64,000 nt of DNA from Candidatus Latescibacterota bacterium. Lineage in GTDB: Bacteria > Latescibacterota > CBDEFO01. A model generated the notes under the pieces. The model saw nothing but the letters and a program-made list of their open reading frames with translations, had not been told where the DNA came from and ran no database searches. The stretch's first letter is position 1; every line of letters begins with the position of its first letter. The stretch lies in NCBI GenBank assembly GCA_965248755.1, contig OZ252149.1, forward strand, positions 2,066,295-2,130,294, in the 5' to 3' direction. Shown piece by piece: positions 2,661 through 64,000 of the stretch. The position numbers and the translations under genes were made by a program.

Positions 2661-2732
2661 AATGTAGGGGCGATCCCCGATAGAGTCAATCGGGGACTCA
2701 ATCGGGGAGGGTTCACCCCGAAGCAATCTCCG
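2661..2732. repeat. composite dispersed repeat copy (GTAGGGGCGA module, CCCCGATAGAGTCAATCGGGG hairpin, CCCCGAAGCAATCTC module)
   Basis: Hairpin at 2685..2705. The flanking modules recur at more than 15 other sites in the window. Confidence 0.7.
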
Positions 2733-2758
2733 TTAGACTGCCTCTCCCTGTATGCAGT

Positions 2759-4351
2759 CTACTTGTCAGTCACCGGAAGTTTGACAATGAAGGTAGTGCC
2801 GGCCCCGACCTGGCTCTGGACGTCAATGGCCCCGCCATGTTTTTTTACCACTTCAAGGGACCCTGGAAGCCCGATGCCCATGCCGCCCTTCTTGTCGGTG
2901 GTGAAGAAATTGAATATATCCCGAATCTTCTCCTCCGGTATTCCGATCCCTGTGTCGCTGAACTTGATCTCTGCGCTCCGGCTATTATGCCCCTTGATGT
3001 CGATGGACAAAGAACCGCCGTCTTCCATCGCCTGATAGGCGTTTAGAACGATATTCGAGAAGACATCTACCATCTGTTCGGGATCGACTTCTATCGGCGG
3101 AACGTCTTTGCTGTACTCTTTGTGAACCTGTATATTCTCGGGCCTGGGAATTCTATCCAGAGAGGCGTCTATGAGGGTGGGGATACTGTAAGGCTCTTTT
3201 CGCGGCTCTTCGGGAACGGCTCTCCTCATCCTGCTTATGTCCTTTTTGACCAGCCCCAGATGTCTGTCTATTCCGTCCAGCGCCCTTTCGAGCCTGAGAT
3301 CGGACGTGCCCCCTTTGAGTGTCCTTTCTCTAATTTCGGCAGCAAACGTATCTATAGGATTTAGGAGGTTGCTGATATTGTGGGCTATCCTCCAGGTGCT
3401 CCTTCCTACCACCGCCAGCCTTTCTGACTCCTTCAGTTCATCCTGACGCTTCTTAATCTCAGAGAGCATGTATTTAAAGGCTCTGGAAAGCCCTCCTATC
3501 TCGTCGTTTCTATCTATGCCTGAAATATCTGCGTCCAATGCTCCTCCCGACGGAGTCGAGGCTCGACCTATTTTCTGGACATCTTCTGTGAGCCGCTTTA
3601 TGGGCTTTACCGTCTGTCTTATAAGAACATAGAAAAATGTAAGAGACAGCAGCGCGGCGGATAGCCCCACGATGCTCAGAAAAGGTACAGTAGGCATCAC
3701 AGGGCGGTAGTAGCCTATCTTGAGGACAAAGTCCCCGCGGTCCGATTCTATCCTCACTCCCACATCCTGGACCATCTCTCCCCCGTAGCGTATCTCATCG
3801 GAGATGATACCTTTGCCGTTATAGAGAAGCTCTTCTACGAGGTCGTAATCTCTGGGATCAGTGGAATACCCCTGTTCCTCCTCAACGTCTGTGGAAAGGT
3901 GGAACTTATGATCGTCACCTATTATCTTGATGTAGGCTATAAAGTCGCTCTTGTATTGGCTCTTGAGGAATTGGAATACAGCGTTTGCGGTGTAGTTATC
4001 TACGAGGGAACTTACAATATTGGCGACTTCTTTGGTTATGGGTTCGTATCCCTTTTCGAACATCTGGGCTTCATATTGTCGTCTTTCGAGCATCGTGGAT
4101 ATGAGGGAAAATAGAGCGACTACCAGTATGGATATTACGAATATAACCGTAGTCTTAAAGAGTATACCGACACGGAATCTGCGCTCGATCCCTTTGACTT
4201 CGACCTCACTCACTGATCTATCGCCTCCACCCGAAAGACAGTAGTCACTGGAAAGTGCATATCCGCCTATGTATAAAAATGTAACAATATTAAGGCCAAA
4301 AAGCAACCTTATTGTGACCCCCCTAAACATAGTAGACAGTAAACAGGGCAC
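2759..4351 (-). CDS. sensor histidine kinase (TM, HAMP, HisKA, HATPase_c)
   Basis: 530 aa with TM segments, an H-box (AHNISNLLNPI) and a G-box (GGMGIGLPGSLEVVKKHGGAIDVQSQVGAGTTFIVKLP). It is adjacent to the NtrC-type regulator and is the likely cognate pair. Confidence 0.85.
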   Translation of the reverse strand: MPCLLSTMFRGVTIRLLFGLNIVTFLYIGGYALSSDYCLSGGGDRSVSEVEVKGIERRFRVGILFKTTVIFVISILVVALFSLISTMLERRQYEAQMFEKGYEPITKEVANIVSSLVDNYTANAVFQFLKSQYKSDFIAYIKIIGDDHKFHLSTDVEEEQGYSTDPRDYDLVEELLYNGKGIISDEIRYGGEMVQDVGVRIESDRGDFVLKIGYYRPVMPTVPFLSIVGLSAALLSLTFFYVLIRQTVKPIKRLTEDVQKIGRASTPSGGALDADISGIDRNDEIGGLSRAFKYMLSEIKKRQDELKESERLAVVGRSTWRIAHNISNLLNPIDTFAAEIRERTLKGGTSDLRLERALDGIDRHLGLVKKDISRMRRAVPEEPRKEPYSIPTLIDASLDRIPRPENIQVHKEYSKDVPPIEVDPEQMVDVFSNIVLNAYQAMEDGGSLSIDIKGHNSRSAEIKFSDTGIGIPEEKIRDIFNFFTTDKKGGMGIGLPGSLEVVKKHGGAIDVQSQVGAGTTFIVKLPVTDK

Positions 4352-4662
4352 CGCCTCCCTTCCCTTGAGATTGCTTCGCTATCGCTCGCAATGACAATTC
4401 ATTTTGCTAAGGTCATTGCGCGGAGGCCTACCCCCGAATGATTGATCCCCGATAGATTCAATTGGGGAGGGTTCGCCCCGAAGCGATCCCCGACCCCGGA
4501 AAGGTTGAATCGGGGGCAATCGGGGACGGATCTCGCAGTCAGTACACCAAAGACACAGCCTCCTATCCCATTTTCCTGTGTTTCAGTCAAAAAATCTTTC
4601 CCCATAAAGGATATAGTATATATTGATAGGCACAACTGAGCAGTAGGAAAGATAAACCATCT

Positions 4663-5530
4663 ATGGGAACTGAGACTTACACAAAGGTACCAAACGATAT
4701 TATGGAAGGTATTTTGTGCAAGGGGTTGCTTTCAAAAAGAGAATCGCAAATCTTCTGTGTCATACTCAGAGAACGGTATAACGGCCAGTGGACAGTACGC
4801 CCTCTACGCGTTCAAAAGATCGCCGATTTTACTCGACTTGGTAGAGCAAATGCTTCCACTACTATAGGAGAGATGCTGAAGAAAAATATCATAAGACAAA
4901 GAGACGGAAAGAAAGGAAGATACTATCAAATTAATACAGATCCCCCAACTTGGATCACTAAAGGTTGTCAAAACAACAGCAAAAAGTTATTGAAACGATA
5001 ACTAAAAGTTGTCAAAACGACAACAATTGTTCCTCTAATCCATTGTTCCGCAAGGCGATACCGAGTCCTAAGGAAGCACCTAAAGGAAGTATCTAAGAAA
5101 GTATATGATGAAGATGGTAGTGCGGTCACTAAGGCACCAGACGAGACAGCATCGAAGTCTCTACAGACTTCAGCTTCAGCATCATCTTTCATAGAAATTC
5201 TATCGCAGAACATACCCGACTTCCCCGAAGACGGAAGGATACTTGAAGTAGCTAAGCGATGCGTCGAAGAGGACCCAGATGTAGATGAACGCCAGGTTGC
5301 CCAGAACTTCGTAAACTGGAAGGATCGCCCTACACTTACTCCCAAAAACATCGAATCCATCATTCAAAATCAATTTAGAACTGCCAGGGGAAAGGGCTAT
5401 TATCGCAAAGAGAGGAAGATAAACCGTCACCCTGGACAGATCCGAAAGACAAAGCAGTATATAGAAGAACTGAGAGAAACAGACGCCGAGTTAGAGTCAC
5501 AAACCCCTGAGGAGAGACAGGCAAAATGAG
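4663..5530 (+). pseudogene. phage replisome organizer / replication initiator-like protein (N-terminal HTH domain), interrupted by an in-frame TAA at 4999..5001
   Basis: 4663..5001 encodes LSKRESQIFCVILRERYNGQW..RPLRVQKIADFTRLGRANASTTIGEM, resembling the Phage_rep_org_N winged-helix domain. The same reading frame continues without a start codon from 5002 to 5530 (DEDGSAVTKAPDE...EERQAK). The two parts together are about 289 aa. Confidence 0.45.
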
Positions 5531-5547
5531 CAGGCATTAAGCAAATA

Positions 5548-5733: not shown

Positions 5734-5894
5734 GGGAGATTGTTTGAGGCTGTACCTCCTCCCAATTACCCAACAACAAGCAATGTCTTTACGAGTACAG
5801 CCCGGTGTCATTGCGAGCGAAGCGAAGCAATCTCAAGTGAGGGGAGGCGGTACCCTGTCTACCCCCGATAGATTCCATCGGAGACTACTGTCTA

Positions 5895-6482
5895 CTATTT
5901 AATCACCTTGATCTCTTTGGAGGACTCAAATGGAGAAGCATGATTAGGCTCCTCCACAGCTCTTAACGTAACGCTCTCCTCCAGGGCGATGGTGAAGGTG
6001 ACCTTAGGCTTGGTGTGGATCGGGTGCAGATAGGCTCGTGCAAGTTCAATTTCGCCTTTGTATATGGCTATCCAGCGGACATGGTGTTGAAAGAGCGTGG
6101 GATGGAGAGCTCCCGCTCCGACCGTCACGGTCACATCGAACCATTCACCCGCTTTAACTGTGTCCGGGGCATCTATCCTGGGGACGTGCTTGGGGTCGTC
6201 CTCCACCTTGACTCTATTGATCTTTTTGAAATTAGTCACGACACTTTCATCTGTTACCTGATCCGCCATCTTTTCATCGGCAAAGACTGACGGGACGACT
6301 GTGCCGAAGATAATCCACAGGGCAACGGCAGAAAATGCAGAGGCCAATCCATAGATAAATCTTACCTTGACATTTGAGCACTTTTTAGCTATATCTAACC
6401 TTATATTCACCTTACGCCTCCTGATGTTTAGGTTTTGATCCAAGATGCCAATTACGAGGCGATATGCCAATTGCGAGACCAA
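5895..6482 (-). CDS. membrane-anchored desulfoferrodoxin / superoxide-reductase-like domain protein (lacks the Cys ligand)
   Basis: KHVPRIDAPDTVKAGEWFDVTVTVGAGALHPTLFQHHVRWIAIY resembles the SOR ferrous-iron domain (KHVPVI...HP...H...WIE). No Cys follows. There is an N-terminal TM helix. Confidence 0.45.
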   Translation of the reverse strand: MVSQLAYRLVIGILDQNLNIRRRKVNIRLDIAKKCSNVKVRFIYGLASAFSAVALWIIFGTVVPSVFADEKMADQVTDESVVTNFKKINRVKVEDDPKHVPRIDAPDTVKAGEWFDVTVTVGAGALHPTLFQHHVRWIAIYKGEIELARAYLHPIHTKPKVTFTIALEESVTLRAVEEPNHASPFESSKEIKVIK

Positions 6483-6884
6483 TGACGAGGCCTAATTATA
6501 ACTGCTGCGGAATCTCATGTCAAGGGAAAAATTAGAGATTCTTTCGCCCCGAAGCAATCTCAACCTGCAAGATCGTCTGAACAGCAAAATCCAGATTGCT
6601 TCCCCCCGATAGATTCAATCGGGGGACGCCCGCAGTGACGGTTTAGGAGGAGGAACTGTCCACAGATGAAGCAGATGGTTATTTCTCTGTTCTGTTTAGT
6701 CTTTCAGTTCGATGAAGCGATCGAGCAGAAGTGGATAAGAGAGTGGCTTTCTACGCCAACTCTGTGAGATATGCAGCGGCTATATCAGGCCCCGACTACG
6801 CCACCTCTAAGAACGGCTGGTAGGAACTAACGAAGAACCTGCAGGAGATGCAGGAATTAAGCGAGTTAAAGACAAGGAGGAAAC

Positions 6885-7673
6885 TTGATGAGAAAGATTA
6901 AATATAGAAACAGAAAGGGGGGAGGCGGTGCCCTGTCTCCCGTCTACTGTCTACTGTCTACTGCCTTCCTGGTCTTCCTCTCTATTTCGGACCTTTCAGA
7001 GGCATCAGCAGAGGTAGGGACGATTGGGGGAAGAGTGACCTTTGAAGGAGAGATTCCCAAGACGAAGGTGTTCAGGGTGACGATAGATAAATATACCTGT
7101 GGAGCTGAAAAGGCATCTCAGGAGCTGATAATCTCGCCGGATAGAGGGATAAAAAACGCTCTTCTATGGATAGAAGGCACCCCCGCTAAAAGGCAGCCGT
7201 CTGAATCGGAAAAAGATGGATTCATCACAGAATCTTCATACCGACTCGATCAGCAAAATTGCGAATATGTCCCGCACGTTCTGGTCGTCCCTCCAGAGGT
7301 CGCACTGAAGATCACGAACAGCGATCCCATAGCTCACAACGTGCACACTATCTCAGATGAGAATCCGTCTTTCAACAAGTTCCAGCAGAAGAACAAGCTG
7401 TCCGTGGTCTTCCAATACCCTGAGATAATTCAGGTGGAATGCAACATGCACAGTTGGATGAAGGCGTGGATCGTTGTGGCTGATAGTACATATTATGCGC
7501 TGACGAATAAAGACGGCTCGTTCAAAATAGAGAACATCCCGCCGGGGACCTATAAATTGAGGCTGTGGCACGAGTCCTTAGGGGAAAACGTAAAGGAAGT
7601 CATAGTTAAATTGGCAGAAGATTTGAAAGTGGACTTCAAACTCAGCAAGAGGAGTATGAATGAATCTGAATGA
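6885..7673 (+). CDS. secreted cupredoxin-like protein (putative type-1 copper site)
   Basis: His residues (HNVH), CNMHSWM (CxxHxxM) and a beta-rich sequence. The N-terminus overlaps a GGAGGCGGTGCCCTGTCTCC(CGTCTACTGTCTACTGTCTAC) repeat module, so the real start is probably downstream of 6885. Confidence 0.45.
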   Translation: MMRKIKYRNRKGGGGALSPVYCLLSTAFLVFLSISDLSEASAEVGTIGGRVTFEGEIPKTKVFRVTIDKYTCGAEKASQELIISPDRGIKNALLWIEGTPAKRQPSESEKDGFITESSYRLDQQNCEYVPHVLVVPPEVALKITNSDPIAHNVHTISDENPSFNKFQQKNKLSVVFQYPEIIQVECNMHSWMKAWIVVADSTYYALTNKDGSFKIENIPPGTYKLRLWHESLGENVKEVIVKLAEDLKVDFKLSKRSMNESE

Positions 7674-8406: not shown

Positions 8407-8407
8407 A

Positions 8408-8690
8408 GATTGTAGGGGCGGGATGAATCAATCTCGTAGTCAGTAAAAAGGTAAAGGCAACGCAAGCCACACTGGTCTGCCGCTGCAGATGAATGTTGGG
8501 GCGAAGTCCGCTCGCCCTTTGGGCGCACCCACCGTGTTCGCCAGATTTATCCGTATTCTCAGGGAAGACACACAGCTCTTCTCCTGTAGATGCACCGTTC
8601 TATGTAGGGGCGAGGTTCGCTCGCCCCCGATTCTGTCAACGAGTGCTTGAGATTGCTTCGGGGTGAACCTCCTCGCAATGACTAAGGGTA
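8408..8690. repeat. composite repeat cluster (two GTAGGGGCGRG...CGCTCGCCC modules plus a GAGATTGCTTCGGGGTGAACCTCCTCGCAATGAC module)
   Basis: Same modules as the other dispersed-repeat copies. Intergenic, between the SDR gene and RecD2. Confidence 0.6.
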
Positions 8691-13689: not shown

Positions 13690-13870
13690 TACAGAAAGAA
13701 AGGATCTCAGTGAGATTGCTTCGGGGTGAAAGCCCTCGCAATAACTCCGGTAAAGTAACGGTCATTGTGAATCGACTACTACGGCCATCGCTAGTAGCTC
13801 CTCTGTGTCAGTGCGACCCCGTCCGATTGAATCTATCGGGGTTAGATCGGGGGAAGGAAACGATCTCACT
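13690..13870. repeat. composite repeat copy (GAGATTGCTTCGGGGTGAAAGCCCTCGCAATAAC module plus CCCCGATTGAATCTATCGGGG hairpin in reverse orientation)
   Basis: Both motifs match the family consensus. Intergenic. Confidence 0.65.
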
Positions 13871-16076: not shown

Positions 16077-17177
16077 ATGAATAAAACGAAAAGACCGATT
16101 TTCTACACTGGCCTGATGCTCTTTATCGCCTTGAATACACTTGTCTGCACAGGGGATCTTTTCGGATCTCAGTCCCCGATTGAATCTATCGGGGACAAGC
16201 TCGTGGGCGATTTCGACGGAGACAATGACGTAGATCTCTCTGATTTTGTTCTTTTTGTGGATGTGTTTGGAACGACGTTCAGTTCAGCGGATTGGAATCC
16301 TGTGTTCGATTTGGATGATGATGGCGAGATCAGTTTGTCCGACTTTGTGATCTTTGTGCACAACTTCGGCAAGAGTGTAGAGAAAAATGTCTCCGTCAAA
16401 ACTGAAAATCAAAGAACTATATTGTCTTTTCCCGACTATACCCTCGCGGTACAGTATGGCGAACCCGTTGGCATTGTTTCGCTTAAACTTACTGATCAAC
16501 AGACGGATTTTGTGCACCGGAACCTGCCCTTAGGAGACTAGGAATGGTTCAAGATAGATCTGAACGGTAGTCAGGTATGGCTAAAACTGATTATGCCTGA
16601 GTGGAGTAGCCCTGTTCTGCAAACGGCTGGTGATCCTGTTGTCCTGAGGTTTACCAGAGAAAACGCAATTGCTCCAGGTATCACTCTGGGGATCGAATAC
16701 ATCCTGAAGCGCGACAGACCAGAATTCGATATACACTATTCTATCATCAATTCATCTGGACAGACGCTGAAAAAGCCTTATGTGATGATCGGCTTTCCGG
16801 GATTCTCAAATTACGAACAGGTTTCCTCTGTTGAAACTGCGCTTGAAACCCGTGTCACCGCAAGCCCTTACACCAATTTCCGCGATGAGGCAATTGCGCT
16901 TAATAGAGCTGAATACCTGCTGTTGCGTCACGATGTGTCTCCTCGTTCAGGTTCCCTCGATGTCCTAAAGGGAGTTGTCTCTATTAAAGAATCCAGCCGG
17001 ATCATCACACTGGAATCTTCTTTTGTGCCTGACAAGACATACAGTGAGGTCTACTCTGCCCATGTCAATAAACCTGCGTACTTGACGAGCCACATCTATG
17101 CCTTTCTCACCGATATCCCGAATGGAGAAGAAAGAAGAATCACTATCCATTACACCGTCTATGAGAAAGAACCATAG
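16077..17177 (+). pseudogene. secreted dockerin-repeat protein; two ORFs in the same frame joined by a single in-frame TAG (16539..16541)
   Basis: Signal peptide MNKTKRPIFYTGLMLFIALNTLVC. Dockerin type-I pair (GDFDGDNDVDLSDFVLFVDVFG, DLDDDGEISLSDFVIFVHNFG). ORF 16593..17177 continues in the identical frame after the TAG. The hairpin repeat is embedded in-frame at 16166..16190 (QSPIESIGDK). Confidence 0.45.
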
Positions 17178-19164: not shown

Positions 19165-19230
19165 GTGAGATTGTTTCGCTGACCCTTCGCTTTGCTCTGG
19201 GCTTCCCCGATAGATTCAATCGGGGCTCCC
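19165..19230. repeat. composite repeat copy (GAGATTGTTTCGCTGACCCTTCGC module plus CCCCGATAGATTCAATCGGGG hairpin at 19205..19225)
   Basis: Sequence match to the family. Intergenic, upstream of the FG-GAP gene. Confidence 0.65.
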
Positions 19231-23329: not shown

Positions 23330-23440
23330 TTCCCATGAGTTTGCTTCGGGTTTGGGACCTCGCAATAACCAAAAGCCGAAGATATGCACCGTCATTGCCA
23401 TCCCCGAATGAATCTATCGGGGATGGCAAAACAACCTCAC
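23330..23440. repeat. composite repeat copy (GAGTTTGCTTCGGGTTTGGGACCTCGCAATAAC module plus extended hairpin GCCATCCCCGAATGAATCTATCGGGGATGGC)
   Basis: Hairpin core at 23402..23422, with the stem extended to 11 bp. Intergenic. Confidence 0.65.
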
Positions 23441-29297: not shown

Positions 29298-32194
29298 CTA
29301 TACTTTCTGACAGTACCTCTTACACATATCGCCTCGGCGTGGACATCGGCGGCACATTTACTGATATAATGCTTATGGATGACCGGACCGGAAAGCTAAT
29401 AATCGAGAAGGTTCCCACCACGGCAGAAGATCCATCTGTAGCCGTAGTAGATGGTCTTTCCGACATCCTCAAGGAAAATGCAATATCCCCCCAGGACATA
29501 GCCAACGCCATACACGGCACCACACTCGTTACGAACGCCATTATAGAGAGGAGGGGAGCAAAGGCAGGCCTTATAACCACAGAGGGCTTTAGAGACGCCC
29601 TGGAGATAGGAAGAGAAAGGCGGTACGACATATACGACCTTTTTCTCGAACTGCCAGAACCCCTGATCCCCAGATATCTGAGATGCGAAATAGATGAGAG
29701 GCTCGATAGCGAGGGGAACGTCATGAAAGAGCCCGATGGCGATGAAGTCTCAGAAAAGATCGAATACCTGCTGTCCCAGGCCGTGGAGGCGATAGCTGTC
29801 TGTCTCCTCCATTCCTACCGAAATCCCGCTCACGAGGTTGCCGTAAGGGATGCCATAGCTAAAATCGCACCCGAGATGTCAGTATCCCTCTCATCTGACG
29901 TCGTGCCTGAGATAAGAGAGTACGAAAGGACATCCACCACAGTCGCCAACGTTTACGCCAAGCCCCTCTGTGAGAGATATCTCGGCTCTCTTCAATCTGA
30001 ATTGAAAGACCTCGGGGTTCAAAGCGATCTGTATATAATGCTTTCCAACGGGGGGATAGCCACCTGCGAGACAGCCGGAGAGTTCCCGGTAAGAATAGTG
30101 GAATCTGGTCCCGCAGCAGGTGCACTCGCCGCTGTCTTCTACGGTAAACTTACAGATACGCCTGACATAATCTCATTCGACATGGGAGGCACTACCGCCA
30201 AGACCTGCATCATAACTGACAATCTCCCAACATATACCACCGATTTCGAGATCGCACGCGTCCACCGGTTCAAAAAGGGCAGCGGACTGCCCATAAAGGT
30301 ACCGGTCATAGAGATGATCGAAATAGGGGCAGGCGGCGGGAGCATCGCCTCGATAGACAAGATGGGACTCTTGAAGGTCGGTCCCCAAAGTGCAGGATCA
30401 GATCCCGGTCCTGTCTGCTGCGATAGAGGCGGAGATGATCCCACAGTCACAGACGCAGACCTAATCCTCGGTTACCTCAACCCCGACTACTTCCTCGGCG
30501 GCAGGATGAAGCTGAACGTTCAAAAGGCCGTGGACGCTATACGGACTAAAATAGCAGAACCCCTCGGATTAGGTCTGGCTCACGCCGCTTTCGGAATTCA
30601 TCAGGTAGTAAACGAGAACATGGCCAACGGCTCAAGAATACACGCCGTCGAAAAGGGCAAAGATCTCAGAAGGTACGTCCTTGCGGCGTTCGGAGGGGCC
30701 GGTCCTGTGCACGCCTCTCGGATCGCTGAAAAGCTCAGAATAGAAAAGATAATAGTCCCCCTTGCCGCCGGAGCCACGTCTGCCTTCGGCTTATTGACCG
30801 CCCCGATCTCCTTCGATTTGGTGCGCACGTACATTTCTTCCCTTGGGGAACTCGATATAGATCGACTCAATAGTAAATTCGGCGATATGGAAAGGTCAGT
30901 CCTGAGTCTGCTTGAAAACGCCAGAGTCCCGGAACAAGATGTAATCATAATCAGGTCAGCCGACATGCGCTACAAGGGACAGGGCTTCGAGATCAATGTC
31001 CTTGTACCTTCGGGAGAGATAACCTCCGAGGCGATTCCAACTTTGCAGAGAGCCTTTGAAGAAGAATACCTCAGGAACTACAAGAGACTGAATAGGGGGT
31101 TTGAGATAGAAGCCCTGAACTGGAGAGTGTTCGCATCTGGACCCAAGCCCGAGGTTAAACTAAACTTTCATACGCCCTTGCAGGGCAGCTTAGACGACGC
31201 CCTTAAGTCCCGTCGGAAGGTCTATTTCGACGAGTACGGAGAATACATAGACTGTCCTGTCTACGACCGATACGCTCTCGCCCCCGGATCCAGCTTCAAA
31301 GGCCCAGCCATTGTGGAGGAGAGGGAATCCACGGCGGTAGTCTGCCCTCAATGGGAGGCACATACGGATCGATACAACAACCTTATTATGACCCGATGCG
31401 ATCCCCGATTGAATCTATCGGGGAGCAAAAAAGACGTCGCAAGGACTCAGTTCGGAAGACAGGCCGAGCGATACGCCCATAGCTCCGTTCACGCAAGTGG
31501 TGAGACGCTCTCTGCAATCGTACAGTTGGCCGGTCCGACCCGCAAAGACAAAAGCCTGGACGTAGCCACAGGCACAGGCTTCACCGCCTTCGCCGTAGCG
31601 GAATCGGCAGGATCCGTTATTGCCACGGACATAACTCCTCCCATGCTCGACCAGGCGAGGAAGATAGCAGAGGAACGTCGTATTTCCAACGTGATCTTTC
31701 AACTTGCCGATTCGGAGAATCTCCCCTTTAAGGATCGAACCTTCGATATTGTAACCTGCCGAAGTGCGCCCCATCACTTCGGGGATGTCCCCGCATTTCT
31801 CATGGAATCGGCAAGGATCTTAAGACGGGGCGGACGCCTCGTCGTATCCGACCCATCCTCGCCTGAAGACGATGAAATTGACCGATGGATCAATAGGTTG
31901 GAATCGATCCGCGACCCCTCGCATGTGAGAATGTATCGTCCCACAGAATGGAAGAGCATGCTCGAAGGAGCCGGACTCATTCTTAAAGATGAACTCCTCA
32001 GCGTTTCTTACGACCAGACCTTTGTCCGATGGACAGACAGAGCCGGAGTCGGCTCCAAAGTTAAAGAAAAGCTCAAAGAGATGTTTCTGAACGCCCCCGA
32101 CAAGGTAAAGGCCGCCTTCGGAATCGAATGCGACAGTGACGACATAAAATTTCGCTGGAACGCATACGTCTTCAGAGCTGAAAGAGAAGACTGA
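29294..32194 (+). CDS. hydantoinase A / oxoprolinase-family (HyuA) protein fused in-frame to a C-terminal class I SAM methyltransferase
   Basis: Residues 1 to about 695 are Hydantoinase_A-like (DIGGTFTD..., GPAIVEERESTAVVCP). Residues about 700-966 are Methyltransf_11-like (LDVATGTGFTAFA, ARILRRGGRLVVSD). The junction is encoded by the hairpin repeat at 31403..31423 (RCDPRLNLSGS). Confidence 0.75.
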   Translation: MTILSDSTSYTYRLGVDIGGTFTDIMLMDDRTGKLIIEKVPTTAEDPSVAVVDGLSDILKENAISPQDIANAIHGTTLVTNAIIERRGAKAGLITTEGFRDALEIGRERRYDIYDLFLELPEPLIPRYLRCEIDERLDSEGNVMKEPDGDEVSEKIEYLLSQAVEAIAVCLLHSYRNPAHEVAVRDAIAKIAPEMSVSLSSDVVPEIREYERTSTTVANVYAKPLCERYLGSLQSELKDLGVQSDLYIMLSNGGIATCETAGEFPVRIVESGPAAGALAAVFYGKLTDTPDIISFDMGGTTAKTCIITDNLPTYTTDFEIARVHRFKKGSGLPIKVPVIEMIEIGAGGGSIASIDKMGLLKVGPQSAGSDPGPVCCDRGGDDPTVTDADLILGYLNPDYFLGGRMKLNVQKAVDAIRTKIAEPLGLGLAHAAFGIHQVVNENMANGSRIHAVEKGKDLRRYVLAAFGGAGPVHASRIAEKLRIEKIIVPLAAGATSAFGLLTAPISFDLVRTYISSLGELDIDRLNSKFGDMERSVLSLLENARVPEQDVIIIRSADMRYKGQGFEINVLVPSGEITSEAIPTLQRAFEEEYLRNYKRLNRGFEIEALNWRVFASGPKPEVKLNFHTPLQGSLDDALKSRRKVYFDEYGEYIDCPVYDRYALAPGSSFKGPAIVEERESTAVVCPQWEAHTDRYNNLIMTRCDPRLNLSGSKKDVARTQFGRQAERYAHSSVHASGETLSAIVQLAGPTRKDKSLDVATGTGFTAFAVAESAGSVIATDITPPMLDQARKIAEERRISNVIFQLADSENLPFKDRTFDIVTCRSAPHHFGDVPAFLMESARILRRGGRLVVSDPSSPEDDEIDRWINRLESIRDPSHVRMYRPTEWKSMLEGAGLILKDELLSVSYDQTFVRWTDRAGVGSKVKEKLKEMFLNAPDKVKAAFGIECDSDDIKFRWNAYVFRAERED

Positions 32195-35584: not shown

Positions 35585-35775
35585 CTGTCCCCGACCCCCA
35601 ATTGAATCTAATGGGGGCTCAATCGGAGATCGCAGTGACGTTGCGTGGCTTATACCTTAAATCATGGAGCGCTCTTTCTTTTTGTCATTGCGAGGTGCCA
35701 AACCCTGAAGCAATCTCACCTGTCCACTGAATAGACAAGAATCTCTGTTTTACTGTCTACTGATTTTTCAAGTTC
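35585..35775. repeat. composite repeat copy (hairpin variant CCCCCAATTGAATCTAATGGGGG, a GTCATTGCGAGG...CTGAAGCAATCTCACC module, and TACTGTCTACTG)
   Basis: Matches to the family modules. Intergenic. Confidence 0.6.
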
Positions 35776-39613: not shown

Positions 39614-39620
39614 ACAGTAG

Positions 39621-39643
39621 CCCACGATAGATTCAATCGGGGG
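39621..39643. repeat. hairpin repeat copy (CCCACGATAGATTCAATCGGGGG) between nuoA and nuoH
   Basis: Family match. Confidence 0.6.
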
Positions 39644-47831: not shown

Positions 47832-47907
<76 letters not shown>

Positions 47908-48099: not shown

Positions 48100-48205
48100 G
48101 TAAGTGTAAATTGATCCCCAATAGACTCAATTGGGGATTGACCAGAAAACTGGCCACTACCTTTCTGAGAGAAGAGTCGAATTACTCCCCCCGATAGATT
48201 CAATC
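48100..48205. repeat. two hairpin repeat copies (CCCCAATAGACTCAATTGGGG at 48106..48126; CCCCGATAGATTCAATCGGGG at 48179..48199)
   Basis: Family match. Sits immediately upstream of the IS1595 fragment. Confidence 0.65.
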
Positions 48206-48209
48206 GGGG

Positions 48210-52616: not shown

Positions 52617-52815
52617 TTACACTATTACCGGTGGTCAAGCAAGAATTCCCCCGTTCAAAGTGTTAAGGATTCGTTATATCAGCAGAAATTAGATAGATAG
52701 CAGTATCCAAATCAGGTGTATGTTAGTGAAAGATTGCATAAAGGATTCATGTCAGCCAGCTCTTTATGAAGTTCTGTCAATCAATAAAGGGCAAACTAAT
52801 TAACATTCTTAGTGG

Positions 52816-54948: not shown

Positions 54949-55230
54949 TTGCACTATTACCGGTGGTCACGCAAAACTTACCCCCTTCAAAGTGTTAAGG
55001 ATTCGTTATATCCACAGAAATTGGATAGATAGCAGTATCCAAATCAGGTGTATGTTAGTCTAATTTTGCATAAACGGTTTATGGGAACTAACTCTTATGG
55101 GAGAAAATTACTCTATAACGGATCGTAGTTCATCGTATACTCCCCAACGGATGAGGAGGTGGAGCAAAGTATCGGGGATTAGTGGTTATTCCACAACAGT
55201 TAATATCAATCCTAAAGGGGAATTCTGAAA

Positions 55231-58379: not shown

Positions 58380-58620
58380 TTCAGGGCTTACCGATTCTCG
58401 ACGACATGCATGACCACGATCAGCCGCTGGAAGTGCGTATCAACGGCATCCCCTGCTCATGGCCGGGACTAGCCGAACACGTTAAAGCGTCAGGATGAGA
58501 AAGAGCCTCAGCCGCGCCGGCACGTCTATGACGTATCCCCGGAGGCCCTGAGCGACGGCTACAACCTGTCGAGGTGAGCGCCAAGCACATGATCACGTGG
58601 GTAGAGATCTCGGTGCGATA
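58380..58620 (+). pseudogene. degraded 3-prime fragment of the glycoside-hydrolase-like gene (copy of the end of 58783..60366)
   Basis: Aligns with 60128..60366, including the terminal GATCACGTGGGTAGAGATCTCGGTGCGATAG, but with indels and stops. Confidence 0.55.
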
Positions 58621-58782
58621 GGTTTCATGGATACGCGGGGAAGCTTCCATAGGCGGGCGATCTCCGCTAGAGCTTCAGTTGTTGGGATGGGTTTGCGGAA
58701 AGTCCTGTCCTCGAATGACTCTATCGGGGGATGGATTTTCAAACGTAATCGGCGTTCGTTTAGAGAGAAAGAGGAGTTGGCC

Positions 58783-60366
58783 ATGAAGAGTGTCTGGATG
58801 GGGATGTTGATTCTGGGTCTGGCCGGTGTTTCCGCCTCCGACAATGACGGCAACCTGCTTGCAAACAGTGATTCCAAAGGAGAAGCCAACATGAATGATG
58901 CTAATGCTGCCCGAGGGAAGGTCATCTACAACCTGGACTGCACTCAGTTCTTTATGGGGTCGTTCGGTCCCATTGTCCCCGAGACGATCGACAAGTTCGT
59001 GGACACGCACGCTGCTCTCGGAGTCACGGATCTCTTCATCAACGTCAACGCAAAGCGCACCAACTACCGGAGCGATGTATGGGAATCATATTGGGACGGC
59101 TACGATCCGAGCGTCGGCGACGACCAGGCGTTCTTCGCGGGACTTGACCCGAAACGCAGGTTCGAGACGGGGTTGTTCAAGAACATGCTGGCGCTTCACG
59201 AGCAGGGATGCGACTACCCGAAGAGAATGATCGACCGTGCGAGGCGAAATCGAGTAAAGGGGTGGATCTCGCTGCGAATGAACGACGACCACAACCCCCA
59301 TCTCGCGGATCATCCGGCCCACAGCACGATCTGGAAGTCACATCCGGAATGGCGCCTTGCATATGGCCTGGACTACGAACAGCCCGAGGTGCGTGAGCAC
59401 TATATGAAACTCGTCCGGGAGGTGTGTTCTCGCTACGACCTGGACGGTCTGGAACTGGATTTTCTGCGTTTCTGGCTCTACTTTCGCGCCGGACGCGAGC
59501 ACGAAGGTGCGAAGCTAATGACAGCTTTTGTGGAGCAGGCGCGGCAGGCGACAGAAGAAGCCGCGAAGCGATTGGGGCATCCCGTCGAACTCGCCGTGCG
59601 CGTACCGACAACTCCGTGGATCGCCCGCAGGCACGGATTGGATGCGATCGCCTGGGCTAAGAGAGGGCTAGTGGACCTGATTGTGGTCGGATCGTTTTGG
59701 TTCTCCGTCGATAGTGACATGCCTATCGAGACCTGGAAAGGTCTGCTCATCGGTACGGACGTTGCCGTCGCAGTGCATCTGGAAGACGGGATCAATTCGG
59801 GCGACAGCGGTCGTCATACGATGACGCATGAGGAGATGCGCGGGGTATTGGTGAGCGCTCTGCACCGCGGGGCCGACGCGGTATACTTCTTCAATCTCTT
59901 TACGGGACCGCATCAGCGCTGGCCGCGTGAGGATCATGACCGGCTGCTGAGGGACGCAGGGTCCTATGCAGAGCTTCGCGCTGGGCCGCGGCGGCATGCG
60001 ATCACCATCATGAACCCCTGGGCGGAGGGTGAGCCGGGTGAAGCCAGGTCGCTCCCTTACGCCGGCATGCACGGTGTCTTCCGCCTTCACATCGGACCGA
60101 AGCCACTCTCACAACAGAACGCCCGGATTGAGCTGGTGGCGCCGGAACACGATCAGCCGCTGGAGGTACGTCTCAATGGCATCCCCTGTAAATGGTCAGG
60201 CCTTGTCGAAGCCGAACACGTTAAAGCGTCAGGATGGAAAGAGCCTGAACCGCGCCGACACATCTATGACGTGCTCCCGGAGGCCCTGAGCGACGGGTAC
60301 AATCTGATCGAAGTGACCTCCGAGGAAGATGTCAAGATCACGTGGGTAGAGATCTCGGTGCGATAG
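58783..60366 (+). CDS. secreted putative TIM-barrel glycoside-hydrolase-like protein
   Basis: Signal peptide MKSVWMGMLILGLAGVSA with a GAGGAG RBS. GH-like motifs (GLELDFLRF). The ORF-track extension to 58597 is non-coding leader. Confidence 0.45.
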   Translation: MKSVWMGMLILGLAGVSASDNDGNLLANSDSKGEANMNDANAARGKVIYNLDCTQFFMGSFGPIVPETIDKFVDTHAALGVTDLFINVNAKRTNYRSDVWESYWDGYDPSVGDDQAFFAGLDPKRRFETGLFKNMLALHEQGCDYPKRMIDRARRNRVKGWISLRMNDDHNPHLADHPAHSTIWKSHPEWRLAYGLDYEQPEVREHYMKLVREVCSRYDLDGLELDFLRFWLYFRAGREHEGAKLMTAFVEQARQATEEAAKRLGHPVELAVRVPTTPWIARRHGLDAIAWAKRGLVDLIVVGSFWFSVDSDMPIETWKGLLIGTDVAVAVHLEDGINSGDSGRHTMTHEEMRGVLVSALHRGADAVYFFNLFTGPHQRWPREDHDRLLRDAGSYAELRAGPRRHAITIMNPWAEGEPGEARSLPYAGMHGVFRLHIGPKPLSQQNARIELVAPEHDQPLEVRLNGIPCKWSGLVEAEHVKASGWKEPEPRRHIYDVLPEALSDGYNLIEVTSEEDVKITWVEISVR

Positions 60367-60494
60367 GTTTCATGCATACGCGGGGAAGCCTTGATAGGGG
60401 GGCGATCTCCGCTAGAGCTTCAGTTGTTGGGATGGGTTTGCGGAAAGTATGGATTTTCAAACGTAACCGGCATTTATGAAAGGAGAAAGAGCAC

Positions 60495-62765
60495 ATGGCT
60501 ATGGAGATTCTCTTGATGGTGATGGTGATTCTGGGTCTGGCCCGAATTTCTGCCGCCGACAATGACGGGAACTTGCTTGTGAACAGCGATTTCAGCCAGG
60601 GCAATCCGAGCGAGGAGAGTTTCGGCTGGACGGTGGAGCTGGCTGAGGGAGAGAAGAACGAGTGCACCGTGGTAGAAGGGCACCAGCCGGAAACTTACGC
60701 AGTACGTATTTACAATGACGAAAGGAGTTCATCGGGCATCAGTCAGAATGTGGCTGTTAGACCCTGGCGCTGGTATGTGGCCGAGGTGTGGGTTAAGAGC
60801 GACGGGATGTATCCTTCCGTAGTTGGCTTCTCTTTAAAAGGTGGCCGTAAGAATGGCGTGTGGCGGTACAAAATGGATCTTTATCACAGGCCGAAATCAG
60901 GATGGCGCATGATACGGGTGTACGATCACTCGGGGGACAGTGAGCGGCTGACACTATGGATAGGCGGTGATGCCTGGAGCGGCGAGCTGCTCTTAAGCGA
61001 ACCCGTCGTCCGTGAGTGCAGCCAGGTGGAAGCGCTCTCGTACCACCCCAAACCAGCTGACCGCCATCCAGCATATGGCGGTCCTCCCATCGATCCTGAG
61101 AAGGGACTGCCCGGGTATGCCTTCCTGCGAGCGGACGTCCGCCGGGTAGCTCGTGACTTCCCGAATGCGTTGCGGATCTCGATGGACATCCCGGACCCTG
61201 AGGACTCTGAGGGGAGGGTCGCGTTGTGGCTGCCGGCGGGCATTCGCTTCCTTAAACTGCGACCTCATGGCGGAGGGAAGAGACCCCCAAAAGTGACAGA
61301 TCTATCGGGCGGCACAGATGCCCGGGGCGGCATGTACCTCGAGCTGCATACGGGCCCTGGCGAGAGCAACCTGCTGATCGAATCCGACCTGGAGCCGGGC
61401 GAGCGGGCAACGGGGTACGTCTATTACGAGTGGAACGGCGGCTTTCAGCTTCCCAGGCCGGTTGCATTTGAAGGGGTAGAACTGCCGAAGGTCACTGCGC
61501 CGAGGCGAATCGTCACTGCACTTGATGTCTACGGTGCTGCTTACCTGAATTGGGAGAACTTCAAACCTGGCCTGGACGGGCGGGAGGCTATGGTCCGGGA
61601 CATGAAACGTTTGGGCTTCAACCGGTTACAACTATGGGGTGGGGATCCTCGACCCTACGCCAGCATGGGCCTGCAGGGCGCCACCTCCTACGGAGGGAGC
61701 TTTTCCGTGGATGCGGAAAAATACCCTGAGTCGGTCGCTGTCGCATTGAATGGAGAACGTACGAAGGTGATGTGCCCGTCATATCGGGGTCCGGGTTTTA
61801 AGACTAACCCATGGCTGGAGCGCTTGAGAGACACTGCTGCGATCACTTCGGCGGTGAATCTGGACGACGAGGTTTACCTGATGTCCGGCGTTGGCCCGGT
61901 CATCTGTTTCGACGACCGTTGTATTAAACGTTGGAAAGAGTGGGTGAGCGAGCACAAGCCTGGCCTGGCCGGTATTACCCCCAGGGAGTTCTTCAAGCGG
62001 GCGCACAACTATCCGGAGCACTACGAGGCATGGTTGAGATTTCGCTGTGATCTGGTGGCCGAGCGGTTTGGCATACTGCGGCAGGTGTTCCATGAAGCGG
62101 TCAAGAAATCCGGTGTGAAGACGACGCCCGAGCCAGAGTTGGGGGCGTTCACAGGCGAGGAGATGTTGATGGGTCTGTCTTCAATTGAGGCCTTGAGCGG
62201 GGCTCTGGATTTTATTTCACCCATGATCTATCTGAATGGGGACGGTGTGCGCAAAGAAGTTGCCAAGATTGCACCAATTAGCGGCGGGAAGCTAGTGGTC
62301 TGCCTGGCACCGGGATATGGCAATAGTCCGCCCGGTGACGCCAGGTCGCAGGTACTTGAAACCGTGATGGGTGGTGCAAGGGGCTTTGTCGCCTGGAACT
62401 ATGACATCGGCCCGATGACTACCGGTCACCTGGCGGATATGTCCGAGGCGATCAAGATGTTTTCCCCCGTTGAGGACATCATTCTAGACGGCGAGCTTCA
62501 GCCTGGATACGCCGCTGACACTGAATCAGCGAATCTGCTGGCAAGGAAACAGGGAGACGAAACTGTCTTACTTGTCTCGGACTACACACCTGGAGGTGCG
62601 CGGGCTAAGGTAACGGTACCGGGGCAGGCCAGTCTGGAGGTGGTCGATCTTTTCACCGATGAGGTGGTGGCTCGTTTGGATACGAGAAAACGGACTTTTG
62701 AAGTCAAACTCAGACGTGACTTTCAAGCACGTCTCTACCACCTGCGGCCGGCAGGTAGCTCATAG
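60495..62765 (+). CDS. CBM4_9-like secreted protein, paralog 2
   Basis: Collinear with 55231..57372 (NLLVNSDFSQGNPSEESFGW...RPWRWYVAEVWVKSDGM...SPPGDARSQVLE...KMFSPVEDIILDG). Confidence 0.6.
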   Translation: MAMEILLMVMVILGLARISAADNDGNLLVNSDFSQGNPSEESFGWTVELAEGEKNECTVVEGHQPETYAVRIYNDERSSSGISQNVAVRPWRWYVAEVWVKSDGMYPSVVGFSLKGGRKNGVWRYKMDLYHRPKSGWRMIRVYDHSGDSERLTLWIGGDAWSGELLLSEPVVRECSQVEALSYHPKPADRHPAYGGPPIDPEKGLPGYAFLRADVRRVARDFPNALRISMDIPDPEDSEGRVALWLPAGIRFLKLRPHGGGKRPPKVTDLSGGTDARGGMYLELHTGPGESNLLIESDLEPGERATGYVYYEWNGGFQLPRPVAFEGVELPKVTAPRRIVTALDVYGAAYLNWENFKPGLDGREAMVRDMKRLGFNRLQLWGGDPRPYASMGLQGATSYGGSFSVDAEKYPESVAVALNGERTKVMCPSYRGPGFKTNPWLERLRDTAAITSAVNLDDEVYLMSGVGPVICFDDRCIKRWKEWVSEHKPGLAGITPREFFKRAHNYPEHYEAWLRFRCDLVAERFGILRQVFHEAVKKSGVKTTPEPELGAFTGEEMLMGLSSIEALSGALDFISPMIYLNGDGVRKEVAKIAPISGGKLVVCLAPGYGNSPPGDARSQVLETVMGGARGFVAWNYDIGPMTTGHLADMSEAIKMFSPVEDIILDGELQPGYAADTESANLLARKQGDETVLLVSDYTPGGARAKVTVPGQASLEVVDLFTDEVVARLDTRKRTFEVKLRRDFQARLYHLRPAGSS

Positions 62766-62789
62766 CACTTTTTTGGAGGTTAGCCCATG

Positions 62790-62960
62790 GCCAAACCTTT
62801 CCGAAACCGAACACGTCAGAGCATCCGGATGGAAAGATCCTCAGCCGTGACGGGGGAGTTTATGACGTGCGCCCGGACGCCAACAGCCTCTGCTAGAATC
62901 TGATCGAAGTAAGCGCCAAGCACGGTGTTAAGATCACGTGGGCAGGGATCTCGGCGCGAC
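62790..62960 (+). pseudogene. second degraded 3-prime fragment of the GH-like gene
   Basis: EHVRASGWKDPQP...KITWAGISAR-like remnant ending GATCACGTGGGCAGGGATCTCGGCGCGACAG. Confidence 0.4.
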
Positions 62961-63145
62961 AGGTGTGCCTGTCCCCGAATGACTTTATCGGGGATTGCTT
63001 CCGCCGGGAAGCGTCGATTGGCGGCCGATCTCTGCTATGGTCTCAGTTGTTGGTACTGGGCTTGTCCAAAGTCCTGTCCCCGAATGACTTTATCGGGGGA
63101 TGGATTTTCAAATGTAACCGGCATTCACACAGGAAGAAAGAGGAG

Positions 63146-64000
63146 ATGACTATGAAGAGTGTCTGGGCGGTGATGTTGATTCTGGGCCTGTCCCCGAATG
63201 ACTCTATCGGAGATCTGGCCTCTGCTGCTGCCGCCAACAATCACGGGAACCTGCTTGTAAACAGCGATTTCAGCCAGGGCAAACCGAGCCAGGAGAGTTT
63301 CGTCTGGAGAGTGGAGCTGGCTGAGGGAGAGAAGAACGAGTGCTCCGTTGTAGAAGGGCCTCGCCCGGGAACTAGCGCCGTACGCATTTACAATGACGAA
63401 CGGAGTTCATCGGGCATCGACCAAAAGTTCGCTGTTCGGCCCTGGCGGTGGTATGTGGCCGAGGTGTGGGTTAAGAGCGACGGAATGTATCCGTCCGTTG
63501 TTGGCATGTCTTTGCAAGGTGGCCGTAAGAGTGGTGGGTGGCGGTACTTCATGGATTTGTATCACAGGCCGAAATCCGGATGGCGGATGATACGGGCGTA
63601 TGATCACTCGGGGGACAGTGAGCAGCTGACATTATCGATAGGCGGTGGTGACTGGAGCGGCGAGCTGCTCTTAAGCGAACCGGTTGTACATGAAATAAGC
63701 CTAGTAGAAGCTGTTGGCTACCACCGGTTGCCGGGATACCATCGTAACCCGGCACGGTACGGTCCTTCCTCGGACCCTGCGAAGGGACAGTATGGGTACG
63801 CCCACCAGGAAGGTGATGTCAGCCGGGTAGCCCGCAACTTCCCGAACCCGTTCTATATCAGTGGCCGTATGGACGCCAATGCGCCTGAGGGGAGGATCTC
63901 GTTGTGGCTGCCGGCGGGCATTCGCTTCCTTAAGCTTCGACCTCATGGCGGAGGGAAGAGGCCCCCAAAGGTGACAGATCTATCGGGCGGTGTGGATGCC
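63146..64000 (+). CDS. CBM4_9-like secreted protein, paralog 3 (partial, runs off the window end). A hairpin repeat is inserted in-frame in the signal peptide.
   Basis: MTMKSVWAVMLILGLSPNDSIGDLASAAAANNHGNLLVNSDFSQG..RPWRWYVAEVWVKSDGM. The insert CCCCGAATGACTCTATCGG sits at 63192..63210. Confidence 0.6.
   Translation, partial: MTMKSVWAVMLILGLSPNDSIGDLASAAAANNHGNLLVNSDFSQGKPSQESFVWRVELAEGEKNECSVVEGPRPGTSAVRIYNDERSSSGIDQKFAVRPWRWYVAEVWVKSDGMYPSVVGMSLQGGRKSGGWRYFMDLYHRPKSGWRMIRAYDHSGDSEQLTLSIGGGDWSGELLLSEPVVHEISLVEAVGYHRLPGYHRNPARYGPSSDPAKGQYGYAHQEGDVSRVARNFPNPFYISGRMDANAPEGRISLWLPAGIRFLKLRPHGGGKRPPKVTDLSGGVDA

Follow-up and report, generated by a model that had tools for sequence, protein, structure and literature searches.

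A 64,000-nt stretch of contig OZ252149.1 from a Candidatus Latescibacterota bacterium (positions 2,066,295 to 2,130,294 of the forward strand, referred to hereafter as the window) carries many dispersed copies of a small hairpin built on the 21-mer CCCCGATAGATTCAATCGGGG. These copies probably belong to a family of ultra-short, non-coding and non-autonomous mobile hairpins that are moved in trans as single-stranded hairpins. The family is one of the smallest mobile-looking DNA elements known. The window itself is about 95% identical (range 88-97%) to parts of the Latescibacterota metagenome-assembled genome (MAG) CBDEFO01, which comes from a close relative and is a different genome.

When the window was searched for the 21-mer with up to three mismatches, 17 distinct sites were found, five of them perfect copies, compared to 0.00 expected from 100 dinucleotide-preserving shuffles, which gave no match at all. 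The initial annotation, made from the letters of the window, had called a dispersed family with 18 listed sites, and the eighteenth corresponds to an indel variant at 4494. All of its hairpin coordinates fell within 10 nt of ours, with six displaced (2685, 5871, 16166, 48106 and 48179 by 8-10 nt, and one by 1 nt); the measured starts are given in Table 1. As it had also stated, copies occur in both orientations (8 plus, 9 minus), and its estimate of one copy per 3.5 kb agrees with the measured value of about one per 3.6 kb. Hairpin k-mers make up the commonest 11-mer family of the window, and the strict pattern CCCCGAN{7,11}TCGGGG was matched nine times against 0.03 expected. Isolated ATCGGGG half-sites were at background once the hairpins and their fragments had been excluded, which indicates that the unit is the hairpin and not a short uptake-type word; the idea of a DNA-uptake sequence was rejected for this reason.

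The motif is not confined to the window, a possibility that had been raised at the outset. In a genome scan (one genome per species, 8-kb blocks with an exact copy, the counts being lower bounds) at least 80 blocks were recovered, at least 68 of them from the 4.6-Mb MAG CBDEFO01, where they are spread over all eight contigs. The remaining blocks came from 'Deltaproteobacteria' and Thermodesulfobacteriota groundwater MAGs and from one short 'Nanoarchaeia' contig. Loci that had been fetched by protein instead of by motif held 3-4 copies per 16-20 kb, a density of about 0.2-0.3 per kb, or close to one copy per 4 kb, which extrapolates to several hundred copies per genome. A metagenome scan yielded 96 loci, most of about 42% GC. 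Six contigs of 61-67% GC carry the identical 21-mer, either in the nusG-rplK spacer or 5' of rpsB, and these contigs look proteobacterial from their ribosomal-protein sequences. Between phyla, the stretch of identity around the hairpin extends to at most 28-31 bases, and nothing else is common above about 68% identity. No hairpin copy was found in viral contigs, phage genomes or a plasmid collection. The family had been described as distinct in sequence from known ones, and this was borne out: Rfam at gathering thresholds and at E ≤ 1 returned two tRNAs only and no family for the hairpin, an Rfam scan of the high-GC loci returned one tRNA and nothing else, and literature searches on the hairpin sequence and on GTCATTGCGAG found nothing relevant.

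Two observations concern the more distant hosts. Copies in the high-GC loci (L130/L133 in the nusG-rplK spacer, L128/L165 upstream of rpsB, and L161 and L098) are single, exact 21-mers with GC...G flanks, placed in the leaders of ribosomal-protein operons. The exact copy on the archaeon-binned contig lies in locus L066 (DASRUK010000033.1, 3.4 kb, 'Nanoarchaeia' MAG); its archaeal placement may reflect faulty binning, which the shared repeat would have caused or brought to light.

A position profile built from 168 distinct copies (window plus related genome) showed conservation limited to positions -1 to about +25, with nothing common farther out. The conserved unit is a 23-nt hairpin, Y-CCCCGAT-AGATTCA-ATCGGGG-R, with a stem of 8 bp and a loop of 7 nt, and a pyrimidine comes next. 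The outermost pair covaries, position -1 being T or C and position +21 A or G (T-A 91, C-G 48); the two are Watson-Crick partners in 127 of 159 contexts compared to 75 expected, and in the same contexts complementarity of the next flanking pairs (-2/+22 and -3/+23) is depleted. Compensatory double changes numbered 17 in 248 insertion contexts, where 2.5 were expected and none of 2000 simulations exceeded 9, and include the forms CCCCAAT..ATTGGGG, CCCCTAT..ATAGGGG and CCCTGAT..ATCAGGG. A covariation count over 123 distinct 23-mers gave 50 both-side changes against 21.5 ± 3.4, a number reached in 0 of 500 shuffles, and the hairpin structure as named scored above every slid register. The predicted fold is -7.5 kcal/mol as DNA (z = -3.2) and -12.2 kcal/mol as RNA. 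The loop sequence is constant apart from its fourth base, which points to recognition of sequence besides shape. A second subfamily has the loop AGAGTCA, the right arm TTCGGGG and the tail ACAGG(C), and addition of the (A/G)CAGG(C) tail gives an exact 27-nt unit; the CAGG-tail and AGATTCA subfamilies are both present in the Delta lineage as well as in Latescibacterota. No T-run was seen 3' of the stem in the profile or in the contexts, and a reading of the unit as an intrinsic terminator was dropped because the stem has none behind it.

What is gained or lost at a site was determined from 14 comparisons of filled with empty sites, made between strains (genomes 93-97% identical) or among paralogous or multicopy sequences. 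The inserts were exactly 27 nt or 19-21 nt net, with one case of 28 nt in the Delta lineage, where the unit is present or absent among copies of a larger repeat (the composite of about 300 bp). No target-site duplication was found at any of the 14 junctions. On insertion 2-5 target bases were sometimes replaced, and TC^G(A) was a recurrent target for the 19-nt class. Six independent events were exactly 27 nt, with clean junctions and no microhomology.

Most informative for the 27-nt class is the region between 58 and 63 kb, where three paralogous gene heads differ by clean 27-nt inserts (CCTGT + CCCCGAATGACTCTATCGGGG + R). The unit at 63187-63213 is exactly absent in both paralogs (60468-60607 and 58766-58876). 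Those at 58704-58730 and 63073-63099, 5' of the start codon, are exactly absent in the paralogous segment 60381-60519, and the unit at 62968-62994 is absent in the other two segments (about 60304 and 58569). Copies in this region had been suspected of being passengers of segmental duplication, but they are missing from paralogous copies of those segments. At the 63073 site the related MAG carries two units in tandem with 27-nt spacing, and its counterparts of these regions hold other numbers of units, plus deletions and duplications bounded by units; copies later serve as breakpoints for both kinds of rearrangement. Elsewhere, locus L069 has an exact 27-nt insertion relative to four paralogous copies, and in L016 an exact 27-nt unit is nested within another hairpin of a repeat of about 270 bp.

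The shorter class was seen in a wider range of settings. Locus L011, compared to 11 copies of an insertion sequence (IS), has gained 19 nt at GTC^GATC, and L178/L179 have gained 19 nt at CTC^GATC relative to the window at 48761. Insertions of the 19-21-nt net class were also found in L015 compared to 12 IS copies and at two sites of the 270-bp repeat. Three related genomes lack the copy between nuoA and nuoH, and in them AGACAGT[GGGCA]GTAG stands in place of AGACAGT[AGCCCACGATAGATTCAATCGGGG]GTAG, a net change of +19 nt with five target bases replaced. An extra hairpin copy that is not in the window is present in L177-L179. A decayed IS1595-like gene has three hairpin copies in related strains, two of which are in the window, and the related-strain copies at about 48240 and 48761 of this pseudogene are both absent from the window. 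A syntenic contig (L180) with genes 93-97% identical to those of the window is without the hairpin at the site orthologous to 6604 and without the whole repeat composite of about 165 nt that includes the 4447 copy; at 2675 it has about 160 nt more than the window, between two hairpin copies, and the 5863 copy is conserved. Overall, these close relatives differ at about half of the sites open to comparison.

Copies are found mainly outside genes. Stop-to-stop frames of at least 200 codons hold 25% of copies compared to 72% of random positions, crude gene calls place 29% of copies in genes though 81% of the DNA is genic, and about 70% of copies lie outside open reading frames (ORFs). Orientation is moderately biased relative to the gene strand (84:51) and is biased also relative to local GC skew. 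The hairpin had been said to be accompanied usually by other small repeats in a mosaic like that of repetitive extragenic palindromic (REP) sequences and bacterial interspersed mosaic elements (BIME), and this is indeed the case: another small repeat lies within 30 nt in 58% of 158 contexts compared to 5.5% of random positions. The neighbours in these contexts are fragments or loops of the hairpin's own family (32%), a GAGATTGCTTCG...CTCGCAATGAC repeat referred to here as module 1 (20%, typically with the hairpin right after GATTGCTTC), TGTCTAC heptamers (15%) and GTAG-type hairpins (7%). A single composite element, as first supposed, was not supported, since the modules are independent families and the hairpin itself is gained and lost as a 19-27-nt unit. 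Nesting can be close. The 35596 copy occupies the loop of an older member of its own family (CCGATTGAGC[..]GTCGGGGA), and the longer hairpin around 23402 folds as DNA at -15.6 kcal/mol (z = -6.1). The notion that copies always enter the loops of larger hairpins was discarded because flank-to-flank complementarity is not significantly raised overall.

The coding insertions are at tolerant places, namely behind a signal peptide (16174), within one (63192) and at a domain junction (31403), and the peptides they add are SPIESIGD, SPNDSIGD and PRLNLSG. A peptide motif such as SPIESIGD was rejected as the primary cause of the family because copies are mostly intergenic and occur in all open frames. 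The ORF that holds the 31403 copy (29294-32194, 966 aa) comprises a complete hydantoinase/oxoprolinase A with three Pfam domains followed by an S-adenosylmethionine methyltransferase. The joint at about residue 704-711 is the hairpin copy read in frame, and the ORF may be two genes fused through stop-codon loss.

For movement in trans we envisage that the hairpin would fold on single-stranded DNA, at a replication fork or in a transcription bubble, and that an enzyme supplied in trans, specific for both sequence and structure, would cut at the base of the stem. This enzyme might be an HUH/Y1 protein of the RAYT or IS200-like type, or one as yet unrecognised. Ligation of the excised strand into target DNA that is single-stranded would follow, and would account for the lack of a target duplication. 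Joining of this kind has been proposed for REPs and shown for the ends of IS200/IS605. Presence of the same hairpin in unrelated phyla would mean either that both the element and its mobiliser have been passed on horizontally or that the sequence is dictated by a very conserved protein.

Several results weigh against movement by such an enzyme. Neither tblastn nor a hidden Markov model (HMM) picked up a RAYT or IS200-like ORF in the Latescibacterota DNA searched, which amounted to about 680 kb and covered about 15% of the related genome. The tblastn queries were IS200 TnpA and the E. coli RAYT, and the HMM was built from 37 RAYT proteins. With tblastn a match was obtained in Delta locus L005 alone, and a homologue search confirmed that gene as RayT/PF01797; the HMM matched in Delta loci only. 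These RAYT genes are flanked by GTAG-type REPs of their own and not by the CCCCGAT hairpin: GTAGGGGAGGGGCTTGTCCCCTCCC and GTAGCGCGGGGGTTTATCCCCCGC flank those of L005 and L099/L112, and the L027 gene has an inverted repeat of its own. The genes bracketed by inverted hairpins are ordinary housekeeping genes, and a RAYT between inverted hairpins was rejected for the sampled DNA. Insertion boundaries vary (19, 20, 21, 27 and 28 nt, with a few target bases replaced), which fits a copy or repair process better than a precise transposase, although later mutation also blurs junctions. A preference for hairpin loops is not general, flank complementarity showing no significant rise overall, and whether an event is a gain or a precise loss is assigned by parsimony only.

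A resemblance to REP elements had been suggested, and it holds in function only. Features of REP sequences themselves are missing: the GTAG head, the doublets known as REPINs and, in the roughly 680 kb searched, a RAYT beside the copies. No GTAG or GTGG head is conserved beside the palindrome in the 168-copy profile, where Y stands at -1 and R-Y (sometimes CAGG) on the 3' side. Among 32 neighbouring pairs no more than 400 nt apart, 24 were direct with varied spacings, the sole recurrent spacing was that of the 27-nt direct tandem, and no REPIN-type inverted doublets at fixed spacing were found. We found no parent IS with the hairpin at its ends, the hairpin being an insertion within IS copies; the two subfamilies were not found bounding a common element, and the bases 5' of clean insertions vary (AGA, CAT, CAA, TTT, TAA). 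Palindrome-associated elements derived from IS200/IS605, by comparison, are longer elements that lie between two different subterminal hairpins and insert 3' of a fixed tetra- or pentanucleotide. The obvious partner for any RAYT in this genome is the GTAG-type family, not the CCCCGAT hairpin. RAYT (PF01797) genes were located at 5842-6390 of L005, where the gene is broken by a stop or frameshift, at 6998-7477 of L099 (reverse strand), in L112, and at 4168-4860 of L027.

We suggest, tentatively, that the mobiliser might lie outside the RAYT/IS200 type altogether, as an unrecognised system, passed on horizontally, that would cut out or copy hairpins of fixed length (23/27 nt) and paste them into single-stranded DNA with no target duplication. 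It is conceivable, and we put it no higher, that Latescibacterota, Desulfobacterota-like and high-GC Proteobacteria-like genomes would all offer such a system the same substrate. If true, this would be the smallest mobile DNA with hosts in several phyla, and it would provide a handle on movement of the type seen in small dispersed repeats (SDRs).

The main rival is copying that needs no enzyme of its own, by template switching or short-patch gene conversion seeded by microhomology (for instance TC/GA or CGAT), preferentially at stall-prone repeats. Net insert sizes that vary, replacement of 2-5 target bases, targets resembling the base of the stem (TC^GA), clustering of copies in repeat-rich, structure-prone spacers, the half-copies and 10-12-nt slipped duplicates beside many copies, and the failure to find a mobilising enzyme in the 680 kb are all consistent with it. 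We nevertheless consider it unlikely, given the six exact 27-nt events whose clean junctions are free of microhomology and the inserts in unique sequence unlike the element (the signal-peptide site, the nuoA spacer); identical units across phyla would, moreover, require the same sequence to have been fixed independently. Selection for function in cis, with mobility incidental, is improbable as the explanation of the family as a whole. The copies would then be mRNA 3'-end or stability hairpins, attenuators or protein-binding sites, and their intergenic enrichment, their orientation relative to genes, the conserved loop with its compensated stem and the nusG-rplK and rpsB leader positions in high-GC contigs would follow; co-option of REPs in this manner is known. 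Yet the stem lacks a T-run, no Rfam family matches, and copies sit in divergent promoter regions, pseudogenes, other repeats and in-frame ORF sites. About half of the comparable sites differ between strains whose genes are 95-97% identical, a turnover too fast for conserved regulatory sites. Regulatory selection may act on some copies and cannot account for placement or turnover.

A larger element with this hairpin in subterminal position, such as a palindrome-associated element (PATE) of the IS200/IS605 type or a miniature inverted-repeat transposable element (MITE), of which the copies would be solo ends or decay products, appears very doubtful. The AGATTCA-ATCGGGG and AGAnnCA-TTCGGGG+CAGG subfamilies do co-occur in both lineages, as left and right ends would, and hairpins are found within the MITE-like repeat of about 270 bp and the Delta composite of about 300 bp. 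However, the 168 copies show no conservation beyond about 25 nt, the hairpin is itself present or absent inside those larger repeats, the clean 19-27-nt insertions hold the hairpin alone, and close pairs are mostly direct with variable spacing. Identity with Correia elements, ERIC or MITEs was excluded by size, by the want of terminal repeats other than the stem and by the missing duplication, and the resemblance to Correia/NEMIS and ERIC proposed in the initial annotation fails on the same three counts. What is shared with these elements, with IRU and with classical MITEs is a dispersed, non-coding, hairpin-capable repeat abundant in intergenic DNA. Correia/NEMIS are 100-156 bp with 26-bp terminal inverted repeats and a TA duplication, compared to 19-27 nt and no duplication here; ERIC/IRU is an imperfect palindrome of about 127 bp with a conserved central inverted repeat, compared to a unit of 23-27 nt. 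MITEs have a target-site duplication and terminal inverted repeats that derive from a parent IS; relative to them, the hairpin was found with no terminal repeats beyond its own stem, no target duplication and no hairpin-ended parent IS.

The closest analogue of mobile hairpins of this size appears to be the small dispersed repeats of Nostoc, with REP/BIME mosaics next. Elhai et al. (Genome Res 2008) reportedly described SDR4-6 of Nostoc punctiforme and relatives as hairpin units of 21-27 nt, present or absent between related sequences, and these SDRs are said to be nested in other repeats, MITEs and tandem heptamer repeats, with no enzyme known. The CCCCGAT hairpin is similar in having a unit of 23-27 nt, inserts of 19-27 nt, presence/absence polymorphism, and nesting in repeats and in heptamer contexts (15%). 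To our knowledge SDRs offer no counterpart to the identity of the unit across phyla. SDR5 inserts at a short palindrome, and SDRs have been found in Nostocaceae only (PMC5861425). The hosts of the hairpin, in contrast, are Latescibacterota, 'Deltaproteobacteria'/Thermodesulfobacteriota MAGs and high-GC contigs; its sequence appears unrelated, SDRs having been compared by description only, and it has a documented TC^G(A) target and a unit of exactly 27 nt.

With REP/PU, BIME and REPIN sequences the family shares a short extragenic palindrome in hundreds of copies with a compensated stem, mosaics with other motifs, strain polymorphism, a presumed single-strand hairpin substrate and no target duplication. 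It differs in lacking a GTAG/GTGG head, in its length (about 23 nt compared to 30-40 nt) and in having neither inverted doublets at fixed spacing nor, in the sampled DNA, a RAYT beside copies; real GTAG-type REPs coexist in the same genomes, and the hairpin sequence is common to several phyla whereas REPs are usually lineage-specific. Rickettsia palindromic elements also insert in frame and add a peptide to proteins, but they are 100-150 bp long, while hairpin copies are mostly intergenic and the coding inserts amount to 7-9 codons. Mobile GC clusters and double-hairpin elements of fungal mitochondrial DNA are short GC-rich palindromes that spread, nest and occasionally enter coding sequence; unlike the present family these are organellar, of different sequence and reported with short target duplications. 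The phenomenon is not unprecedented; the case stands out for its cleanness and its wide distribution.

Movement of repeats far shorter than 100 nt is understood in part for REPs and not at all for SDRs. The family supplies an exactly delimited 23/27-nt unit with a recurrent target, numerous filled and empty sites among near-identical genomes, and one sequence found in several phyla, which together make a comparative search for a co-inherited enzyme feasible. In an uncultured phylum the hairpin reshapes the DNA between genes, lengthens proteins by 7-9 residues and, through its copies, drives deletions and duplications. Such repeats also break short-read assemblies and create spurious ORFs, and identical 21-31-mers in different phyla could mislead binning.

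The companion modules were re-examined as families in their own right (Table 1). All ten sites listed initially for module 1 were recovered, those at 19167 and 50303 with the left arm only. The base of the module is conserved (GTCATTGCGA ... GAAGCAATCTC), its apical stem-loop is GC-rich and variable, and the whole folds only weakly as given. It occurs also in a low-GC groundwater lineage (metagenome locus L156, 4821-4863) and is thus common to several phyla. For the GTAG module, full copies stood at 8604 and 8495, those called at 2664 and 8412 proved partial, and an unlisted copy was added at 28295-28318. The GTAGGGGCGAGGTTCGCTCGCCCC repeat shares its architecture with the repeats beside the RAYT genes of Delta loci L005 and L099. 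The GGAGGCGGTGCCCTGTCTAC module is full at 4339, 5843 and 6921, and the sites called at 35751, 39609 and 46136 hold heptamer fragments only. TGTCTAC arrays call to mind the short tandem heptamer repeats known from heterocystous cyanobacteria; of the sequences sampled, only those of Latescibacterota contained these heptamers.

Table 1. Positions of hairpin copies and companion repeats within the window
Feature	Position	Strand	Context
Hairpin, 1 mismatch	2675..2695	+	Intergenic, between a sigma-54 response-regulator gene and a histidine-kinase gene; GTAG-REP half (2664-2674) on one side, module-1 arm on the other, then 12-nt partial duplicate ACTCAATCGGGG
Hairpin, compensatory-type variant ...ATTGGGG	4447..4467	+	Inside an interrupted module-1 element
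22-nt indel variant CCCCGGAAAGGTTGAATCGGGG	4494..4515	+	AGGTTGA-loop subfamily, also seen as a 27-nt insertion in L016
Hairpin, 2 mismatches	5863..5883	+	In a TGTCTAC heptamer/GGAGGCGGTACCCTGTCTAC module, just 3' of the desulfoferrodoxin gene
Perfect hairpin	6604..6624	+	After GATTGCTTC of a module-1 element
Hairpin, 2 mismatches	13821..13841	-	Intergenic, beside module 1 (13712-13745) and an extra CCCCGAT half-site
Perfect hairpin	16174..16194	-	In frame in an ORF, right behind a predicted signal peptide; encodes SPIESIG(D)
Perfect hairpin	19205..19225	+	Divergent intergenic region, within a degenerate module-1 element
Hairpin, 1 mismatch	23402..23422	-	Apex of longer hairpin TTGCCAT[..]ATGGCAA
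Perfect hairpin	31403..31423	-	In frame (PRLNLSG), hydantoinase-A/methyltransferase junction of the 966-aa ORF
Hairpin, compensated stem (CCCCATT..AATTGGGG)	35596..35616	-	Convergent intergenic region
Hairpin	39620..39643	+	Between nuoA and nuoH; 21-mer starts at 39622
Hairpin, compensated variant CCCCAAT..ATTGGGG	48116..48136	+	Within the decayed IS1595-like transposase gene; kept in related strains
Perfect hairpin	48189..48209	+	Within the same IS1595-like pseudogene
27-nt unit, CCTGT+CCTCGAATGACTCTATCGGGG+G	58704..58730	-	About 50 nt 5' of the start codon of a GHL10-like paralog; 21-mer starts at 58709
27-nt unit	62968..62994	-	5' of the third GHL10-like paralog; 21-mer starts at 62973
27-nt unit	63073..63099	-	Relative site identical to that of the 58704 unit; 21-mer starts at 63078
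27-nt unit	63187..63213	-	In frame, signal-peptide region (GL|SPNDSIGD|LA); 21-mer starts at 63192
Module 1 reference copy, GAGATTGCTTCG-variable apex-CTCGCAATGAC	8649..8682	+	Frequent hairpin landing place
Module 1, full copy	4367-4395	+	
Module 1, full copy	5807-5834	-	
Module 1, full copy	13712-13745	+	
Module 1, full copy	23337-23369	+	
Module 1, full copy	35684-35717	-	
GTAG-type REP-like hairpin GTAGGGGCGAGGTTCGCTCGCCCC	8604..8627	+	DNA fold -10.7 kcal/mol
GTAG-type copy	8495-8518	+	
GTAG-type copy	28295-28318	-	
GTAG-type copy, partial	2664		
GTAG-type copy, partial	8412		
GGAGGCGGTGCCCTGTCTCC then TGTCTAC heptamer repeats	6921..6961	+	Heptamer arrays are a recurrent hairpin landing place
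TGTCTAC heptamer repeats	6934-6961		Such repeats are often joined to GGAGGCGGTGCCC
TGTCTAC heptamer repeats	4325-4345		
TGTCTAC heptamer repeats	5882-5895		
TGTCTAC heptamer repeats	39605-39620		
TGTCTAC heptamer repeats	46132-46145		

Larger repeats and insertion sequences were noted in the same DNA. The MITE-like repeat of about 270 bp is present in 17 copies in 544 kb sampled (L016 1640-1990 and 16 other MAG loci); it is centred on two inverted GTCATTGCGAGCCGAAGGCGAAGCAATCTC, and hairpin insertions at three sites distinguish its copies. Module-1 copies form a similar inverted pair at 4367-4440 of the window. Two hairpin copies of L014 directly adjoin a tandem array (2440-3140) whose period is about 82 nt, and they sit in a related sequence context. 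The decayed IS1595-like transposase gene, with stops and frameshifts, occupies 47990-49000 of the window beside tRNA-Phe (47832-47907). In the related MAG (L019 826-2345; L177 18564-19919) an IS of about 1.5 kb, of the DDE_Tnp_1/DUF772 type and present in at least 12 copies in the sampled loci, lies between the tRNA and this pseudogene, and in L177-L179 a further copy of this IS takes the place of the window's genes 5' of nuoA.

Two tandem paralog arrays are found at 50475-57372 and 58597-64000 of the window. One encodes three proteins, each about 710 aa long and ending in a CHU_C/type IX secretion C-terminal domain; the other encodes secreted proteins of the GHL10-like kind, and the regions upstream of these are hot spots of the 27-nt unit. 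Repeat number in this region differs in the related MAG, with 27.7 kb compared to 14.3 kb between shared markers.

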